DNA of 64,000 nucleotides from Eledone cirrhosa (taxonomy: Eukaryota), in contig OZ024746.1 in the NCBI GenBank assembly GCA_964016885.1, positions 46,314,001 through 46,378,000 on the forward strand, given 5' to 3'. Shown here in pieces: positions 2,904 through 57,422 of the stretch (position 1 is the first letter of the stretch; every line of letters begins with the position of its first letter). Made by a program: the position numbers and the translations under genes. The notes beneath the pieces were generated by a model, which saw only the letters and a program-made list of their open reading frames with translations, had not been told where the DNA came from and searched no databases.

Positions 2904-2941
<38 letters not shown>

Positions 2942-3033
2942 TATATACATATATATATATGCATATATATATAGCGGCGATGAATTAGTTTTGCGAGGTT
3001 TTTTATATGAAATCGTGTGTCGAAACAGATATT

Positions 3034-3438
3034 GTTATATTTGGGGAGGGTCATATTTGCGTAATATTGCCAGAATTAATAACAGAACACACTCACTGTT
3101 TGGTTGGTTTTCGCTTCTCGCTGTCTTTTATATATATATATCTGCGATCTAACTTACTCGGTCCTCAATGTTGCCATTGACTGACCGGCGGTCAAAAATA
3201 ATACAGATGTAAACTGTAAATAATATTATGTAAACTATATATATATGTGTTTGTCTATATTGTATCTGTATTATTTTTGACCGCCGGTCAGTCAATGGCA
3301 GCATTGAGGACCGAGTAAGTTAGATCGCAGATATATATATATAAAAGACAGCGAGAAGCGAAAACCAACCAAACAGTGAGTGTGTTCTGTTATTAATTCT
3401 GGCAATATTACGCAAATATGACCCTCCACAAATATAAC
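3034..3438. repeat. Near-perfect inverted repeat (about 175-bp arms), probably a fold-back PLE end
   Basis: 3034-3208 is the reverse complement of 3264-3438. The terminal motif atgaccctcc..aa is shared with PLE ends at about 5870-5917 and 6490-6520. Confidence 0.85.
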
Positions 3439-3615: not shown

Positions 3616-4120
3616 GAACGGAAAAAATGAAACGAAATTTCATTTCCCACTCTTAGTACGGCTGTTACTTAAATATAAGTATGTATACGTACATACATAT
3701 ATGTATACAGGCGTACAGAAGTATGCATATATATATACATACATGCACACATATATATATATATGTACGTATGGATTCACCAAACATTTATTATAATGCT
3801 CGGTGTGTTTGTAAACAAACATCCCGTATAAAGCCGTACAGTGTCTAGCAACCATCGTTGCTCATTTCTTCAACACTGACAAAGGAACGCTGTACTAGTT
3901 TCAAGCTTATTAGCTATCGTCAGCAACGTATACCTTCCTGTCAGATGATTGAACGTCTGAAAGTATATACTTTCCTTATGCATATTAACGGCTGAGCAGC
4001 CTAATTTGCATATCGAGTGATTTAATCGCCCGGGATACCGAAAACGATAAATGGAAAAATTGAAACGAAATTTCATTTCTCACTCTTTGTGCGGCTGTTA
4101 CTTATATATAAGTATGTATA
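3616..4120 (-). mobile_element. Non-coding HHR retrozyme-like element, copy 1 (about 433-bp unit with terminal redundancy)
   Basis: gaaacgaaatttcattt repeats at 3629 and 4062. The element is homologous to 7081-7460 and 28938-29840, carries the HHR at 3887-3929, and has TA flanks. Confidence 0.8.
3887..3929 (-). ncRNA. Type I minimal hammerhead ribozyme
   Basis: Minus strand reads acgttg-CTGACGA-t-agct aata agct-t-GAAAC-ta-GTA-cagcgt, with a 6-bp stem I and palindromic stem III (actagt). Confidence 0.8.
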
Positions 4121-6479: not shown

Positions 6480-6489
6480 CATATATATA

Positions 6490-7080
6490 TATTGTTATGC
6501 TTTGGGAGGGTCATGTTGCCAATAAGAAACACACGCACCAGTTGTTTCACTTCAATTTATTATAAATTAAATTTATAAATTTAGGAATTTATAAATTTCC
6601 GGTTGATTGGTTGGTTCTACAACCAGACGATTGTTCATATATTGTCAAAGTTCTTTCGTCACACATTCTGTGACCTCTTCAGTAATGTTATCTAGATACA
6701 TATGGCTTTAGCAACCTGCGCCCTACAAGATCAGCAAGAGGCAGACCACCTACCATTACCTCAATGCCCAAGAAAACCCAGATAGATGGATCGGCTAGAC
6801 CAGAGCCATACGGACCCCCGAAAACCACGATGAACTAAAGAAAATGATTGCACATGCAGTGGGGGCCCATATAAAATTAACCCTTAAGGAACATATGTTC
6901 AAATTTAATGGAAAACCCCAAGAGGAAGGAGCACCCATTGGTGTTAGCATTGCAGGTGACATAGCTAACCTATTCATGGTATGGTGGGACAATAGACTTA
7001 AACTTAAACTTAAAGAACAATTAGAAGACATCAACCTCTTAACCCTGATAATGTACTCACGCTACGTTGATGATATAAAC
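6490..7080. mobile_element. Penelope-like element fragment: inverted pseudo-LTR (minus, 6490-6695) plus RT fragment (plus, about 6700-7080)
   Basis: ORF 6844 onward has PLE RT motifs F.FNG..Q..GAPIG..IA..IANLFM and YSRYVDD. The minus-strand end carries an HHR core and an AATAAA. Confidence 0.85.
6644..6686 (-). ncRNA. Hammerhead core in PLE pseudo-LTR (stems I and III weak)
   Basis: Minus strand reads CTGAAGA-g-gtcaca gaatg tgtgac-GAAA, with a perfect 6-bp stem II. Confidence 0.55.
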
Positions 7081-7460
7081 AACGTTCAACTATCTGGCAG
7101 ATGGGTAAACGGTGCTGATGATAGCTAACAAGCTTGAAACTAGTACATCGTTCCTGTGTCAGTGTTGAACAAAAAGGTTACGTGGTTGCCTTAACACCGT
7201 ATGGCATAAATTCAGGCTGTTCGATTTGTTGACAAACAAACGAAAAAAGCAGGCGTTATAATAAACGTCGGCTAAACTGATGCGTGCATATATGTATGTG
7301 TACCTGTATGCATATGTGTATATATATGTATATATATATATATATATATGCATGCTACTGTACGTCTGTATACATATATGTATGTACGTATACATACATA
7401 CTTACATTTAAGTAAGTGCCATACTAAGAGTGAGAAATGAAATTTCGTTTTCATTTTTTT
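7081..7460 (+). mobile_element. HHR retrozyme-like element, copy 2 (5'-truncated, fused to Penelope RT)
   Basis: From aacgttcaac onward it is colinear with the unit starting at 29537. Confidence 0.8.
7109..7151 (+). ncRNA. Type I minimal hammerhead ribozyme
   Basis: acggtg-CTGATGA-t-agct aaca agct-t-GAAAC-ta-GTA-catcgt. Confidence 0.82.
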
Positions 7461-7507
7461 TCAACTTACATATATATACATATACATATATAAACATATA
7501 TATATAC

Positions 7508-8812
7508 ATCTTTTGGAAGAAGGTTTCTTCTGCGTCCTCATACTTGAACAGCTCTCTATCTAAAATCTGTAATCTCTGCCTAAATGAAAAAATTACCATT
7601 TTCTCTAATCTAGATTCTATAATAAATAGACGTACAGATTTGTTTTCTATCTGCTTGCATAAATTCCATAGGACTTTTCACAAAGTATACAGCTAATATT
7701 CAATTCTTTATCAATTTAGAATCTTTTCTCAAAGGCACATATACATACACCTCTTTATAATATACCCATCTTCCTACCTTACTTCAAAGGGCATTATACG
7801 CTCTATAATACTTGTTTACTCATTACCCTCATTCTATCTTCACCTTGTAAAATCCTTCATAACATATACATTTGTTTTTTTGACGTTAGAATATTCATCC
7901 GCAATTATTATTATTTTTTCTCTCCATCATCAAACTTTTTAATCTCAATACATTAACTCCCTCTCCTTCTTTTGACGCTAGAATATTCATCCTTAATTTA
8001 TTATTTTTCTCTCCCCATCAAATAACTCATTCTTAATACATATTAACTCCTTCTTCGCACATATTATCAATTCCTTCAATATACAAACCTTAACTTCACA
8101 TTATTTTTCTCAAATCATCTAATACACAAACCTTAATAATTTTTTAATACATATTAACTCATTCTTCGCACATATTATCAATTCCTTCAATATACAAACC
8201 TTAACTTCACATTATTTTTCTCAAATCCTTCAACACACAAACCTTAATAATTTTTTTCTCTTCGTTAATTTTGAAATTGCCATAATACTTATAAACATAC
8301 ACCTTTTTGACGTTAGAATATTCATCCGCAATTATTATTTTTTCTCTCTATCTTCAAACCTTTTAATCTCAATACATATCAACTCCCTCTCTTTCCTCGT
8401 ACATATTTTTCCCTTCGTTAATTTTCAAATTCTTTTAATTTATACATTATCTTCCAACGGTTTTCAACCTCTCTATGTAAAACAATATATCTTCTCTCAG
8501 TTATAAAAACTATCTCTTTCTCTCTACCACCCATCTCTCCCTCTCCACCTTCACTCTTATCTCCTCCCCTTTTTTTCATTCTTTCCACCCCCCCCCTCTC
8601 TAAATAAAATATTTTTCCCAATATCACACATCAATCTAAAACTACTTTTCATAAGTTGATTTAAAACTGCACTTTCCACAAGTGTTTTTTAGCCTTCATA
8701 TCATGTCCTCCTGTTTTATCTGATGAAAACACGAATATTATTGCATGATGATGTTTGTTTTTGAAATGCGCATAATAAAATACATGGAACTCCTTTAACC
8801 ATCTTTTGATCT
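7508..8812 (+). mobile_element. 5'-truncated Penelope-like element (GIY-YIG C-terminus, pyrimidine-rich repetitive 3'UTR, HHR)
   Basis: Translation W..VSSASSY....KICNLCLNEK..I......NRRTD....CLH (7513-7696) fits a PLE endonuclease tail (Naiad-like, inferred). It has internal repeats ttttgacgttagaatattcatc and a duplication of about 111 bp at 8035-8250, and TA flanks. Confidence 0.75.
8714..8780 (+). ncRNA. Type I hammerhead ribozyme (intact core)
   Basis: ttttat-CTGATGA-aaaca..tgttt-t-GAAA-tgcgc-ATA-ataaaa. Stem I is ttttat/ataaaa and stem III is the palindrome atgcgcat. Confidence 0.75.
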
Positions 8813-9007
8813 CATATATTATATATATACATATATATATACATATATATACATATACATATATATACATATATATACATATACATATATAAAACATATA
8901 TATACATATATATACATATATATACATATATATACATATATACATATATATACATATATTTACATATATATATACATATATATATACATATATATACATA
9001 TATATAC

Positions 9008-28874: not shown

Positions 28875-28935
<61 letters not shown>

Positions 28936-28939
<4 letters not shown>

Positions 28940-29052
28940 GGAATAGAATAGAATGAAACGAAATTTCATTTCTCACTCTTAGTACGGCACTTACCTAAAT
29001 GTAAGTATGTATGTATACGTACATACATATATGTATACAAACGTACAGTAGC

Positions 29053-29089
<37 letters not shown>

Positions 29090-29267
29090 CACACATATAT
29101 ATATGTACGTATCAGTTTAGCGAACATTTATTATAATGTTCGCTTTGTTCGTTTGTAAACAAACGGACAGCCTGGTTTTTGCCGTATGGTGTTAAGGCAA
29201 CCACGTCACCTTTTTGTTCAACACTGACACTGATACGTACATATATATATGTGTGCCTGTATGTATG

Positions 29268-29326
<59 letters not shown>

Positions 29327-29840
29327 GCTACTGTACGTCTGTATACATATATGTATGTACGTATACATACATACTTACATTTAAGTAAGTGCCGTACTAA
29401 GAGTGAGAAATGAAATTTCATTTCATTCTATTCTATTCCATTTATCGTTTTCGGTGCGCCTGGCCGACTGAACTCACTCGATATGCAAATTAGGCTGCTC
29501 AGCCGTTAATTTTCATAAGGAAAGTATATACTTTCGAACGTTCAACCATCTGGCAGAAGGTTATACGGTGCTGACGATAGCTAACAAGCTTGAAACTAGT
29601 ACATCGTTCCTGTGTCAGTGTTGAACTAAAAGGTGACGTGGTTGCCTTAACACCGTACGGCATAAATCAGGCTGTCCGTTTGTTTACAAACGAACAAAGC
29701 GAACATTATAATAAATGTTCGCTAAACTGATACGTACATATATATATGTGTGCCTGTATCTATATATATATATATATATATATATACATGCTACTGTACG
29801 TCTGTATACATATATGTATGTACGTATACATACATACTTA
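28936..29840 (+). mobile_element. HHR retrozyme-like element, copy 3: inverted partial copy (28936-29230) plus about 1.2 tandem units (29231-29840)
   Basis: tgatacgtacat recurs at 29231 and 29728 (period 497 including variable TA). The left part is the reverse complement of the unit. Confidence 0.85.
29565..29607 (+). ncRNA. Type I minimal hammerhead ribozyme
   Basis: acggtg-CTGACGA-t-agct aaca agct-t-GAAAC-ta-GTA-catcgt. Confidence 0.82.
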
Positions 29841-35325: not shown

Positions 35326-37000
35326 ATATATATATATATATATATATATGGGGTTTGTACAGTTTCCTTCTTTCATTTTCACCCATGATACATTAGTTAG
35401 CCCAAGGTTACAGTAGAAGAAACTTGCCCATGGTTTCATGAAGTGAAGTAGATCCCAAGACCACACAACCAGGCCTATGCTCATTTTAAATACCAATATT
35501 ACTAATGATGGATAAAAATAAAGAATAAAAGAAAAACTTTCTTCATCGATTGGGTATAACAAAAATTATATTTATGTAATTTATATATCCAATTTAACTA
35601 GCTTGAAAGTATATCAGTTGCAAATAAATGGTTTCCTCTTGGGTGTTTGGATCTAAATAAGTCTAAGACCTGATAAGATTACTTTCATTTTGGGCATCTA
35701 ATACATTGTAAAAGATACCTCGATGGGGAGTTCATAACTATTCTCTTGATACCTACATGATTAGTAATTAGCTAGCTGATCAGATAGTTAATACTATATA
35801 ACAGGTAACAACATGCAAATATAGTTTCTTTCTTTGATATGTTTAGATTAATATTATCTCCTTTAATACTTTTATACTCTTGAGTTCCAATTTCAATTCA
35901 GTTCTGTCATTTTGATTAAAAATTAAAGCAAATTACTATGTATAAACATACAAAGCAGAGAATTAAACATTTATAGTCTTCAATCCAAAATAATGGGCAA
36001 ATTTGCAACTGGGCATTAAGGAACTCTTGTGGTTATTATAACTAAAACAACAACTACTACTTCTATTGTTGCTGCTACTACTACTACAAATAATAAAAAT
36101 GATAATTGCTGATTTAGGCAATGGGGGGGGGGGTCGATTAAATCGACCCCAGTCTATTACTGATACTTTATTTTGCCAGCCCCACAAGGATGAAAGTTAA
36201 AGCAAAGTACTTATTTTCCTTACGGTCAAAATTTCATAGTTCATAAACCAGAGCAAAGAAACCGATCTAAGCAATGGTTTATTGATTACCAATGCAAGGA
36301 AAATATGTACTTCTTCCTAAATATTATATGCTTTATATATATGTCAAAATAGTATGTATTTCTCTTATGATATATGGCTCTTTCTATATTTTTTTTTTTT
36401 ACTACCACATGTAATTTCATTAATATATGTCTGTGTATGTCAACCACGTAAATATATATATTAAGCTTTTCCTTAGACTCTGTTTGATATTTGATATTAA
36501 CGTTGTTATATCATATCATTTTTATGTAATCGTATTATAGATTTTAATATATGTTATTTGAAGTACTGTTCTGTTATATTTTGTAATATTTTGTGATATT
36601 TTAGTTAAGTTTATGCCAATGTAAAATGACTTGACCTCTGTGTATTTGTTGCAATGGTATAGATATTTTTTCAACACAATTTTTTCAACACAATTTAGTT
36701 CTATATGATTTTTTTTCTTACCCTGTGTAAAACTTTATACTATTTGTTAACCTTGAATTATATATATGATGGAATTTTGTATATCTTTTGATGCCAATAT
36801 ATTATAATATTGTTATTATAATGTTATTATAATGTTTTTATATTGTTTATGCACACTGACAGGGAATTATATATTATATTTTATTTTTATTTTTATCTTT
36901 ATTCTTATTTTTATCTTTACTATATTATACTGTAAACAATATATATATATATATTTAAATACTTAATAAGTGTTAGTTTGTGTTTGTACTAATGTATATA

Positions 37001-37034
<34 letters not shown>

Positions 37035-37037
<3 letters not shown>

Positions 37038-40000
37038 ATGGATGGACTACGGAATTCTGGAGAGTTGAAGAGAGAAAAATGTGGACGCTCAGCGACAATG
37101 CCAAAGATAAAGACAAATTCACCTCGTGGACGAGAATGCAAGCACTCCGCCTTGTTTCGGCCCAGGATGGCTAACATAACCCCATCCCCCCCCCCCGTGC
37201 CCCACCGCTCCCACCTTCCAAACGCAATCCAAAACTTCAGAGTTGGTACCATGAATGTAGGCACCTTAAAGGGTCGCTCTAACGAGGTTGTAGAAATGCT
37301 TGAACGTAAGGAGGTCGATGTTTGTTGTATTCAAGAGACCACGTGGAGGGGAGGGTCGGCTAGATTCATCGTGGGTAAAGAACGATGCTATAAGCTTTTC
37401 TGGGTGGGAAATGACAATGGGTTGGGTGGGGTAGGAATCATGGTAGCAGAAAAGTGGGCAGATAAGATAATAGACGTAAATAGAGTGAACGACAGAATAA
37501 TTAAAATAAGACTTGTCCTCAATAAAACTACGGTGACAGTAATATCTGCGTACGCACCACAATCCGGACTGCCCGGTGCTATAAAAGACAGATTCTACGA
37601 GACACTGATGCTCGCTACCTCCCAAATAACCGACAGTGACTATATAATTATTGCAGGCGACCTAAATGGTCACGTTGGACAACATTGTGACGGCTATGAC
37701 GGAATCCATGGAGGCTATGGGTTCGGTACTAGAAATGAGGAAGGCTCCAGAATCCTGGAATTCTGCGATGCAAATAACTTAACTATCTGTAACACTAACT
37801 TCAAAAAACGAGACAATCACTGGATCACCTATAGATCGGGGGAACACACAAGCCAGGTAGATTATATCCTTACCAGAAGACGTGACAGAGTGTCTGTTGT
37901 TAACACTAAATCCCTCCCCCATAAAGAATTCACCTCCCAACATAGACTGATAATTAGCGACCTCATAGTCAGGACGAGACGTACTAGACAGCGGAAGACG
38001 ACTATCCTCAGGAGAAAAATATGGAAGCTAAAGGACCCCATAGCCAGAAATAAATTTCAAAGCATATTACTTGACGCTTTCGACAGTAAGGAAGAGCAAT
38101 TAGAGTCGTATAATATAGAGGAACAGTGGGAATTCCTGAGAGCAAACCTGCTGACGGCGGCAGACGAAGTCTGTGGCTGGAGCAGGCCTGTAGGTAGGAG
38201 GAGAGTAACATGGTGGTGGAACAGTAAGGTGGAGGAGTCAGTTAAGGCCAAAAAGCAGGCTTGGAAAGCATGGCGGGATGGGGGAAGTAGAGAAGACTAT
38301 CAAGTGGCCAGGGGGGAAGCTAGGAGACAAGTGTACTTCGCAAGAAGGGAAGCAGAGGAAAGAAAGTTCAAGCATGTTCTACAACGTGAGGACCAAAAAC
38401 GTGAGGTGTTCAGGATTGCCAGGCAATGTGTCAAGGAAAACCGTGATATTGTCGGGGAGAAGTGTGTACTTAACGATGATGGCATACTTGCCATCACCGA
38501 CGCTGATAAGAAGGTAGCTAGGAAGTGTCACTATGAAAGGCTTCTAAATGAGGAGAACAAATGGGAGAAAGACAGTCTCCCCCACATCGACCCAATAGAG
38601 GGACCAGCAGTGTTAGTCCAGGGTAGTACAATAAGCAAGGCAATCAAAGATATGAAGACGGGTAAGGCGGCTGGTCCTTCGGAAATAGTTGCTGAGATGC
38701 TGAAGGCATCTGGTTCGGTGGGACACACCATGGTCACCCGGATAGTTAACCAAGTCGTACAGAATGGGGTTGTTCCGAAGGACTGGCGTAGCAGCATCAT
38801 CGTTAACTGCTATAAGGGAAAAGGAGATGCCCTAGATAGGAGTAACTATAGAGGCATTAAATTAATCGACCAGGTCATGAAGGTCACGGAAAAAGTAATA
38901 GCGCAACTAATCAGAGAGAGAATTGATCTAGATGAAATGCAGTTCGGATTTGTGTCAGGCAAAAGTACCACAGACGCTCTTTTCATTGTACGACAACTAC
39001 AGGAGAAGTACCTAACTAAAAGTAAACCCCTATACTTAGCTTTCATCGACTTGGAGAAAGCCTTCGACAGAGTCTCCCGTTCCATTATCTGGTGGTCTCT
39101 TAGAAAACTAGGTGTTGACGAATGGCTTGTGAGAGCTATACAAGCCATGTATAAAGAAACAGTCAGTAAGGTTAGAATTAACAACGAATATAGTGAAGAG
39201 TTTAGCGTAAAAGTTGGTGTCCATCAGGGCTCTGTTCTTAGCCCCCTAATATTTATTATTGCCCTTCAGGCTATAACAGTGGAGTTCAAGACCGGCTGCC
39301 CATGGGAACTCCTATACGCAGATGATCTAACGCTCATAGCTGAATCAATGACCGAACTAGAGAAGAAATTCCAAACATGGAAGCACGGCCTAGAATCAAA
39401 AAGCCTTAAAATTAACCTGGCTAAGACTAAAGTTCTAGTTTGTAGGAAAGAAAATAAGGCGGCAGTCCCATCTGGGAAATGGCCATGCTCAGTGTGTAGG
39501 AAAGGCGTAGGTAGAAACTCCATTTTATGTCCCAAATGCAAAGTATGGGTGCATAAAAGATGTAGTGGGATCACAAGATGTAGTGGGATCACAGGTAAGC
39601 TAACTAAGAACATAGATTTTACATGTGGCCGGTGCTCTGGTGCAATAAGTAGCAGCAAGTGCCCACAAATACTAGCTCCTTCAACTGCGCAGAGGGTTCT
39701 ATAGAAATAGTGGACAGCTTCTGTTACCTGGGTGACAAAATCAGCAGTGGGGGAGGGTGCTCTGAAAGTACAGTAGCTAGAGTCAGAACAGGATGGAAAA
39801 AGTTCAGAGAGCTTATACCACTATTAGCCGCTAGAGGTTTCTCCCTAAAAATGAAAGGCAGGTTATACGATGCCTGCATACGAACAGCAATGCTGCATGG
39901 CAGTGAGACCTGGGCATTGTGTGCAGAGGATATACGCAGACTAGAGAAGAACGAAGCTTGCATGCTCCGCTGGATGGGCAATAGTAATATACGTGAACGG

Positions 40001-41454: not shown

Positions 41455-41793
41455 TGGAGGCACATGGCTTAGTGGTTAGAGCATTGGCCTTGCAATCAAA
41501 AGGTTGTGAGTTCAATTCTCAAGTTTCCTTGAGCAAGACACTTTATTTCACATTGCTCCAGTTTACTCAGCTGTAGAAATGAGATGATAGGGACCGGGGT
41601 CCATATCACTCCACTGCAATGTGGTCGTGGAGGTGCCACGGCAAAAAAAGCACCCAGCACTCACTGTAAATGAGGTTGGTGTTAGGAAGGCCATCCAGCT
41701 GTAGAAATCAAGCCAGAATCAATTCCTCCCCCCCCCCCTTGCAAGCAGGGAAAAAGCGGACGTAAAATGAAATGATGATGAAATGATGATGAT
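41455..41793 (+). mobile_element. tRNA-derived SINE (family 2 head) with RTE-derived 3' tail
   Basis: Head tggcttagtggttagagc..gagttcaattc, block ccttgagcaagacacttt, tail ggttggtgttaggaaggccatccagctgtag..(gat)n. Confidence 0.8.
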
Positions 41794-55929: not shown

Positions 55930-57252
55930 CTAAGGCGGGTAAAATTCCCGAGATCCATGGACGAGTTCTCTCCAGCGGTCTCTGTCCCTCATTATCGCTG
56001 CCATATCCTGCATCTCCAACAGACCAGTGTCTGTCCTTAGGGCATCAACATATGTTAACCTTGGTCTTCCTCTTCTAGTGTGTCCATGTAGGGGCTCCCA
56101 AAGGAGCACTGAGTGCAATGTCAACTCTGGATGTCGGTGAGCATGTCCAGCCAATCTCAGTCTCCTCTGTGTCACTTTTGAGCTGACTTTTGGGATGCTC
56201 CCATACAGCTCCGAGTTTTTCATCCTCAGTGTATACTGATTAATGTTCAGAGCCATCCTCAGCATTCTCGTGTAGCACCCATCCACCATCTGAGTGAGTC
56301 TCTTGGTCAGTGTCCAAGTCTCAGACCCATACAGCAGCACAGACTCCACTACAGCAATGAAGAGGCGGATTTTCAGGTCTCTACGAAGGTCCGACTTCCA
56401 CACCGATCTCAAGCTGTGACACGCCGCCCAGGCCTTGCTCTTCCTCTCAACCACATCATCTTCCGTATTCCCAATCTTTGCTGCCAAATACAGGAAGTCC
56501 TCAACCAATTCCAGCGGGTTCCCGCCTACATTAGTGATCCCCTCTGGCTTCTCAACATTCTCTACCAGATATTTTGTTTTAGTCTCATTCATTCTCAGCC
56601 CTACACTCATCGACACAGTCTCAACCTCCCGCATCAAATCCTCTGCCTCCTTCAATGTATTTGTCACCAAAACTATGTCGTCGGAAAATTCAGCATCCGA
56701 TACCTTTTTCGCCCCAACTCTCCTGCTCTGAGCCAGTGCCACAGTAAAGCCAGAGTCCTGGTGTTTCTCCAGTGCAAGGCGCATACAATAGTCCACTACG
56801 ATGATAAAAAGGTAGGGAGCCAATGTATCTCCCTGGAGCACTCCAGCCAGTATCTCAAAGAACTCTGTCATCCCATCAGGTGTAATGACTTGGGCTTTGG
56901 TGTTGGTGTAGAGCAGTGATATCAGGTCCACTATCCTCTTGGGGATTCCATAAGCCTGTAAGATCTTCATCAGGCAGTAACGGTCCACAGAATCAAAGGC
57001 CTTCCTAAAGTCAATGAAAACCATGACCGCAGGAAGGCACTTTGCTCTAGCTCCCTCTAATATCCTCCTCAGCATCAGGATGTGACTGGTGGTTGATCTA
57101 CCCTCTCTGAAGCCGTTCTGGTTGTCCCTGAGCTTCTTCTCCATCTCAGGCCGGATCCTGTTAAGAATCATCCTGTTGAGGGTCTTTGCCACAAGTGACG
57201 TCAGTGAGATCCCCCGGTAGTTGTTGGTGTTAGAGAGATCTCCCTTCTTTGG

Positions 57253-57255
<3 letters not shown>
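55930..57255 (-). mobile_element. 5'-truncated RTE-type LINE (second family) with open RT frame of about 440 aa
   Basis: [44 protein letters not shown] (sister copy FADD), LYGSETW and RGRP. TA repeats on both sides. Confidence 0.93.
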
Positions 57256-57325
<70 letters not shown>

Positions 57326-57422
57326 TATATATATATATATATATGCATATATATATATATACATATATATATAGATAGTTAGATAAATGTAGACGGGTGT
57401 GTATGATTGTGTATAGAAGATT

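Follow-up and report, generated by a model that had tools for sequence, protein, structure and literature searches.

We regard it as probable that the hammerhead-bearing repeat at positions 28,936 to 29,840 of a 64,000-nt stretch of the Eledone cirrhosa genome (hereafter the window) is a tandem retroelement that codes for no protein, has reached a high copy number and carries a conserved type I hammerhead ribozyme (HHR), and that it is likely copied in trans by a Penelope-like element (PLE) from what is likely a circular RNA. An earlier note on this DNA had proposed a retrozyme copied from circular or multimeric RNA, and this prediction is supported by the non-coding tandem unit with its type I HHR. 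The note had counted three copies; genome-wide, at least 28,412 cores were found with a looser core pattern in which stem II is free (control: 2), and the exact 34-nt core occurs 23,085 times in the genome of 2.996 Gb (reversed control: 0). The retrozyme family is a large, young part of the genome, about 0.4% of it if each core stands for a 450-bp unit. It is dispersed over all large chromosomes, and the 40 best-scored copies of copy 3, the repeat named above, are 98-100% identical over 311 bp. A metagenome scan for the HHR core gave 0 matches; contigs of the sequencing runs X1-X3 contain the same subfamily variants and were not counted as evidence.

Insertions were analysed at 54 loci, taken from the first 100 listed cores on C1 minus two cores already within L034; as the loci were selected for an intact core, conservation of the core cannot be tested on them. 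The units form three main subfamilies (A, B and C), up to 20% apart, with same-strand periods of 420-516 bp including a variable AT tract. In three monomers the GC content was 0.31-0.38 and the longest Met-to-stop frames were 51-116 aa, mostly microsatellite-derived; the unit codes for no protein, as the note had read it. LTR-like architecture was seen in none of the 59 insertions at these loci.

The features of the window are collected in Table 1. Copy 3 consists of an inverted arm and a main arm placed head to head, which accounts for the inverted partial copy noticed earlier. The inverted arm lacks an HHR core and ends in (TA)n with a 'long' (tailed) 3' end, and the main arm, of about 1.2 units, ends in (TA)n with a 'short' 3' end; one monomer in this copy measures 463 bp (29324-29786). 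Copy 1 (1.1 units) carries its HHR at 3887-3929 and a PSE-like element at 3992-4012, and copy 2 lacks the promoter part. Terminal redundancy of more than one unit, claimed for the family as a whole, was found in copy 1 and in the 1.2-unit arm of copy 3; copy 2 is shorter than one unit and has none. Because each window locus lacks two tandem HHRs, none could release a monomer alone, and the three copies, with one HHR each, would be dead-end progeny. Copy 2 meets a fragment of PLE1, a coding PLE family, at a junction with no AT tract and with microhomology at 4/5 nt. This fragment, the two-site insertion ends and the U6-type promoter motif described below go unmentioned in the note.

Table 1. 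Retrozyme copies, their neighbours and the parts of the unit in the window.
Feature	Position	Strand	Remarks
Copy 1 (subfamily B)	3617..4118	-	unit 41-404, AT tract, unit 1-109; long 3' end at 3617
PLE1 inverted 3' arm, short end	6489..6683	-	PLE1's own unrelated HHR at 6641-6682
PLE1 reverse-transcriptase fragment (YVDD)	6681..7085	+	joined straight to the 5' end of copy 2
Copy 2 (subfamily C)	7081..7468	+	unit 210-434, AT tract, unit 1-117; long 3' end; HHR 7109-7151
5'-truncated Hydra-type PLE, neighbour outside the unit	7492..8827	+	stacked in the same (TA)n tract as copy 2
Copy 3, inverted arm (subfamily A)	28934..29230	-	unit 289-433, internal AT tract, unit 1-122
Copy 3, main arm	29230..29840	+	unit ~403-433, AT tract, full unit 29324-29756, AT tract, unit 1-54
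Tail segment between two putative reverse-transcription start sites (short end at about unit 54-60, long end at about 110-122), T-rich tract included	29378..29445	+	
PSE-like element TATGCAAATTAGGCTGCTCAG	29482..29502	+	like the -77 element of the genome's U6 and RNase MRP genes; putative function
TATA box	29525..29530	+	42 bp past ATGCAAAT (46-48 in U6/MRP)
Extended stem I scaffold around the HHR (GTTCAAC/GTTGAAC, CTGGC/GTCAG)	29540..29626	+	
Canonical type I hammerhead	29565..29607	+	predicted cleavage after GUA at 29601
Two small hairpins	29677..29723	+	29677-29692, 29698-29723

Several further elements lie in the window. Copy 1 sits in the AT tract of a two-armed non-coding element (2926-3436) with PLE1-like short and long ends, which is likely a second passenger of PLE1. 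RTE-like LINE copies and another LINE-type reverse transcriptase at 36993-39704, 406-2324 and 55930-57378 (-), with one open frame of 903 aa, are ordinary, and a tRNA-like match at 41458-41530, barely above the Rfam cut-off, is probably a SINE head.

Three exact HHR cores are present in the window, at 3893-3923 (-), 7115-7145 (+) and 29571-29601 (+), and none of 100 shuffles contained any; the complete type I core ascribed to each of the three loci is confirmed. The description of the stems and of the two additional hairpins (Table 1) held up as well: stem I changes by a G-U to U-G swap from acggtg/catcgt in copies 2 and 3 to acgttg/cagcgt in copy 1, and stem III is ACUAGU, with cleavage predicted as the note had it. 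The label 'minimal' had to be given up. Judged by the definition in PMC4209133 (available part), the HHR is canonical, with helix I of 6 bp, helix II of 4 bp resting on a U-U mismatch, and helix III of 2 bp with a 2-nt palindromic loop (the definition asks for 1-2 bp with a palindromic loop). The combination of an extra nucleotide between 9 and 10.1, a G10.1-C11.1 pair and an absent or minimal helix III, which marks minimal PLE-type HHRs, was not found in the unit; positions 10.1/11.1 are U-U here and A-A in the sister family described below.

The Rfam search suggested in the note returned no hammerhead in the window at gathering score, only a tRNA, and 361 nt of the unit gave no HHR at E<=10. 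The sole match, to Hammerhead_HH9, aligns core to core over an 81-nt stretch (E=0.022) and reaches 17.6 bits vs a cut-off of 52. Standard Rfam annotation overlooks the retrozyme family.

The region 29425-29735 has a fold z-score of -4.2. For isolated monomers of the three window copies, the HHR fold is predicted to lie 1.4-2.8 kcal/mol above a competing fold when helix III and tertiary energy are left out; the helix of this competitor takes up core bases, and the predicted lowest-energy fold of the monomer is inactive. Activity may therefore need dimers or protein. Helix III is ACUAGU in the unit and ACAUGU in the sister family, and remains palindromic in both; either sequence corresponds to a dimer duplex of -6.8 to -7.0 kcal/mol. 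The axolotl ribozyme HHR_Amex2 shares this U-U base and cleaves better in dimeric form (available part of PMC7229834).

A sister retrozyme family was found at L048 (9010-9756; L194-L218), with at least 2,756 candidates, of which 40 were scored and 25 fetched. It is older, with copies about 90% alike, and about 60% identical to the unit; it has the same promoter motif, TATA box and ends, and its hammerhead is fully re-paired, with predicted cleavage after GUU. When 16 sequences of the first family and 19 of the second were laid on the hammerhead structure, 96% of the 840 cells paired, vs 19-37% for slid structures. Double-sided changes were found in 6 of 24 pairs (3/6 of stem I, 3/4 of stem II), a count not above that of shuffles (138/500), and the covariation reflects few evolutionary events as there are two families. 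Between 26 and 9 full-length units of the two families the identity was 0.60 overall, 0.88 in CUGANGA, 0.99 in GAAAC and 0.44 in stem II. The core is thus conserved above its surroundings, the opposite of what the note had named as grounds for abandoning its reading. Taken as a sequence comparison, this indicates that the hammerhead is under constraint, with stems I and II compensated between the families.

The unit likely carries its own U6-type promoter. Its best-conserved 21-nt stretch between the families, which starts TATGCAAAT(T/G)AG, is identical at 0.87, vs 0.40 for the spacer to the TATA box and 0.92 for the TATA box. Three of seven distinct U6 upstream regions (15 fetched loci) and the single RNase MRP gene have TATA at -30 and, at -76 to -78, the motif TATGC(A/T)AAT(T/G)AG; it is missing from the other four U6 regions, and a form with one mismatch precedes one of six U6atac loci. 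The element of the unit matches one U6 promoter at 12/12 positions, and that of the sister family matches RNase MRP at 14/14. The ATGCAAAT element was absent from the U1/U2 upstream regions seen, and a link to U1/U2 via TCAG about 26 bp before TATA was set aside as too short to weigh. None of 5000 shuffles of the unit contained the promoter motif; across 855 kb of other loci it was met twice, in each case within a retrozyme copy. A 21-nt pattern for the element has 22,716 copies. When whole U6 upstream regions were aligned locally to the unit, the result did not differ significantly from shuffles; the signal is the positioned motif.

The transcription start is predicted near 29555. The distance from the PSE-like element to TATA is 42 bp in subfamilies A, B and C and 43 in the sister family, and differs from the 46-48 bp of the host genes. 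In subfamilies B and C, runs of T6-T7 immediately precede the next promoter and would stop most Pol III transcripts; the simplest reading would be a Pol III-type unit whose cycle is fed by occasional read-through. Among the host genes themselves (L142-L193), those of Pol III type 3 carry TATGCWAATKAG near -77 and TATA at -30; in U1/U2 genes the elements are AATTA near -90, TCAGT at -56 and a box resembling TATA. If confirmed, these promoter elements would be useful as cephalopod guide-RNA promoters.

The ends of the insertions point to the machinery of PLEs. Sixty-three 3' ends were mapped: 28 are short (about unit 50-61), 32 are long (about unit 105-118) and 3 lie elsewhere, so that 60 of the 63 fall at two fixed sites, with a tail of 59-61 nt between them, and nearly all run into (TA)n. 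Twenty-eight of the 59 insertions in the 54 loci (one a segmental duplicate) are two-armed, head to head. Wherever both ends could be classified (21 insertions), one was short and the other long; the remaining seven have one unclassified end. PLEs leave inverted 5'-truncated arms, target (TA)n and carry a tail at one end (available part of PMC8557442), and the tail comes from two internal reverse-transcription start sites, described as unique to PLEs (PMC11167929). Two fixed 3' ends, an inverted 5'-truncated arm and (TA)n targets, the marks of a PLE-mobilised element, are all present here. Most target sites are (TA)n; outside microsatellites, target-site duplications of 14 bp (L003) and 9 bp (L091) were recognised by eye. 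At the latter locus (L091:3950-7000) a two-unit retrozyme lies in a Hydra-type ORF, and the composite is partly repeated in the inverted arm, apparently re-retroposed as cargo; the 9-bp duplication identifies it as an insertion into that ORF, and a retrozyme/Hydra-type chimera was discarded.

Copies run through the cleavage site, and of 87 5' junctions not one falls within 5 nt of it, which argues that the template was not a linear cleaved monomer. Two to nine cores are carried by 23 of the 59 insertions, both arms counted. In four of six arrays the divergence inside the array is 0-0.4%, vs 0.8-1.7% to the nearest other locus; such arrays appear born identical, as rolling-circle copying predicts. 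The two others do not fit a single monomer template: L094 (1792-3722) is strictly ABAB, with two units that differ at 15 sites, and therefore needs a dimeric circle or duplication at the DNA level, and the two L092 units are less close to each other than to a unit from another locus. The spacing in L065 partly alternates (484/502/484/494), possibly from dimeric circle templates as in L094. Circles are predicted to be 68-72% paired.

The same ends could be left by PLE mobilisation of a linear, uncleaved RNA read through from tandem loci, with the HHR only trimming or regulating RNA and the long arrays copied from their parents or duplicated as DNA. The absence of 5' ends at the cleavage site fits this account equally well, the ABAB array of L094 and the predicted inactive fold of the monomer speak for it, and HHR mutants of a PLE left insertion in vitro unchanged, cleavage being unneeded (PMC11167929). 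A dimeric circle, however, also yields ABAB, arrays of six to nine cores are nearly identical within single insertions that keep the fixed ends, and the HHR has been maintained by compensation between two families. We consider a linear template unlikely, though a serious contender.

Which PLE would serve the unit is suggested by the tails. PLE1, an abundant family (9,516 candidates, 150 scored), encodes a reverse transcriptase with a GIY-YIG domain, a CX4CxxC linker and a CCHH motif; by motif, not by tree, its linker resembles the Nematis rows in the supplement of PMC8557442 (available part). Its ends (51 short, 39 long) combine as 15 short+long, 3 short+short and 0 long+long, with a tail of about 57 nt. 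The tail of the Hydra-type PLE measures about 89-91 nt and those of three other end families 76-90 nt. Since the 59-61 nt of the unit come close to PLE1 and the other tails are longer, PLE1 or a sister would be the best partner. The Hydra-type PLE, which abuts copy 2, was rejected for its tail length and because its adjacencies run via AT tracts or other elements. Retrozymes, from one family or the other, lie nearby in 16 of 91 PLE1 loci. Direct AT-free junctions of the unit with PLE1 were seen at window copy 2 and in two of the 91 PLE1 loci (L029, L050), with microhomology of 3-5 nt at the two junctions checked. They bear on a partnership with PLE1 suggestively only, as nested insertion with deletion explains them equally well, and the L029/L130 junction insertion is long+long, contrary to the short+long rule.

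The PLEs drew attention for their own sake. PLE1's own HHR (window 6641-6682 (-); L033-L052) lies about 210 nt past the stop codon and has an extra G before helix II, a G-C pair and CUA or CUU at the cleavage site. The Hydra-type PLE (window 7492-8827; L122-L129) is very abundant and young (32,814 candidates, open frames of 820-821 aa) and has a long-stem HHR; in the portions of the literature available, no mention was found of Hydra elements this abundant in a cephalopod-type genome. The neighbouring PLE protein has its closest named relative in Octopus vulgaris (67% identity). At least four further hammerhead-like motifs occur in repeat ends (L033, L036, L041, L042, L063 and others), one with CAGAAGA in place of CUGANGA; families there have tails near 76 and 88 nt in length.

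With every PLE insertion hallmark present, the unit might itself be the pseudo-LTR or 3' end of an unsampled coding PLE family, and the copies its truncated insertions; 24 of 57 Xenopus retrozyme families matched known transposable elements, nearly all PLE termini (available part of 10.64898/2026.07.22.740005). The note had named descent from a coding Penelope element as a refutation, and neither of the two coding families compared whole (PLE1 and the Hydra-type element; others were compared as fragments) matches the unit: BLAST found no similarity to either, each carries its own, different HHR, and the unit forms the element end in 0/91 PLE1 and 0/35 Hydra-type loci. No weight was given to a 12-nt AT-rich word that the unit has in common with the PLE1 3' end. 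Among 44 full units, moreover, 37 are preceded by another unit's 3' part as judged by motif and 7 by an AT tract, an inverted arm or flank; none has a coding end or endonuclease-coding sequence at a fixed point before it. A pseudo-LTR origin thus seems improbable to us. A satellite, or a repeat spread at the DNA level with no RNA stage, whose hammerhead-like motif is decorative would explain the tandem arrays and internal microsatellites, but hardly the dispersal on all large chromosomes, the fixed 3' and random 5' ends, the short+long rule in 21/21, the 14- and 9-bp target-site duplications at two non-microsatellite sites or the compensated stems, and we give it very little credence.

The preferred reading, copying by a PLE from a circular RNA, can be put as a cycle. 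From the internal U6/MRP-type promoter (PSE-like element and TATA), transcription would start about 46 nt before the cleavage site. At loci with at least two units, read-through RNA would be cut at successive hammerheads, probably as dimers via the palindromic helix III, and the 420-516-nt monomer would be ligated into a circle that now includes the promoter sequence. A PLE reverse transcriptase-endonuclease, with PLE1 or a sister family as best candidate, would nick both strands of (TA)n; of the two cDNAs, one would be primed at the short and one at the long site, each would follow the circular template through anything from part of a turn to about eight turns, and the 5' ends of the arms would be joined. 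Counting against this explanation are the competing monomer fold, the L094 and L092 arrays, the PSE-TATA spacing, the T6-T7 runs, the lack of BLAST-detectable similarity between unit and PLE1, the long+long insertion at L029/L130 and, in the available part of 10.64898/2026.07.22.740005, the cleavage of only 1/9 Xenopus dimers.

More tentatively, and with some doubt, the unit may be a self-contained circle that joins a host-type U6/MRP promoter to a hammerhead, is no derivative of a pseudo-LTR, and offers a PLE two sites that it reads on an unrelated sequence. If true, ribozyme and circular permutation would carry the upstream promoter, normally lost in retroposition, into every insertion, which would give animal retrozyme hammerheads one purpose and provide a natural two-component system for rolling-circle insertion.

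Every testable genomic feature of non-LTR retrozymes appears to be present in the unit. With the metazoan non-LTR retrozymes of coral, mussel and axolotl (PMC7229834, here and below its available part) it shares a canonical type I HHR, low-GC tandem units, dimers to multimers, the lack of an ORF, co-occurrence with PLEs and apparently, judged by eye at two sites, target-site duplications of >4 bp, and with axolotl HHR_Amex2 also the U-U at the base of helix II and the 2-bp helix III. It differs in length, at 420-516 bp including a hairpin of internal microsatellite sequence, vs 150-450 bp in PMC7229834. That article proposes mobilisation by PLEs, and the part available describes neither the two-site tail nor two-armed insertions; RNA and circles have been shown for its retrozymes and are predicted for ours. 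Li, Clavereau & Pollet 2026 (10.64898/2026.07.22.740005, available part) share the conclusion that PLEs mobilise type I HHR tandem repeats, and the unit falls within their range of 51-972 bp; they rely on co-occurrence and on similarity to pseudo-LTRs across 35 genomes, none from a mollusc, whereas we rely on the signature of the insertion ends.

The claim of a new family accordingly stands at the level of the family, but the kind is already known from these two sources as far as they are available. The main text of PMC7229834 (available part) mentions no cephalopod, with a supplement that may list more species, and no cephalopod retrozyme appeared among the literature entries listed; the family may be catalogued unnamed in Dfam, Repbase or the O. 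vulgaris library, of which the available part (PMC13282606) gives 58 unknown and 31 PLE active families. Newt satellite 2, with an snRNA-type Pol II promoter, and the Schistosoma satellite, with a Pol III promoter, are likewise HHR tandem units with an internal promoter (available part of PMC2220036); unlike in these satellites, the motif of the unit matches the Pol III type 3 genes of its genome (U6, RNase MRP and, weakly, U6atac), not U1/U2, and its TATA box lies 4-6 bp closer than in the host genes. With PLEs whose GIY-YIG endonuclease is C-terminal (Craig et al., 2021, PMC8557442, available part; Frangieh et al., 2024, PMC11167929) it shares (TA)n targets, partial tandems, an inverted 5'-truncated arm and a one-ended tail. 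In contrast to them it has neither reverse transcriptase nor endonuclease, is closed on itself and has a tail of about 60 nt vs 30-40. What appears to be new is the PLE tail rule on a retrozyme, the lack of pseudo-LTR similarity to the elements examined, and the host U6-type promoter motif. The transcription of animal retrozymes and the enzyme moving them have so far been proposed, not shown; the present family gives base-level start sites, a strict short+long rule in keeping with PLE biochemistry, a family whose RT-EN frames are long and open as candidate partner, and a promoter motif that surpasses the rest of the unit in conservation.
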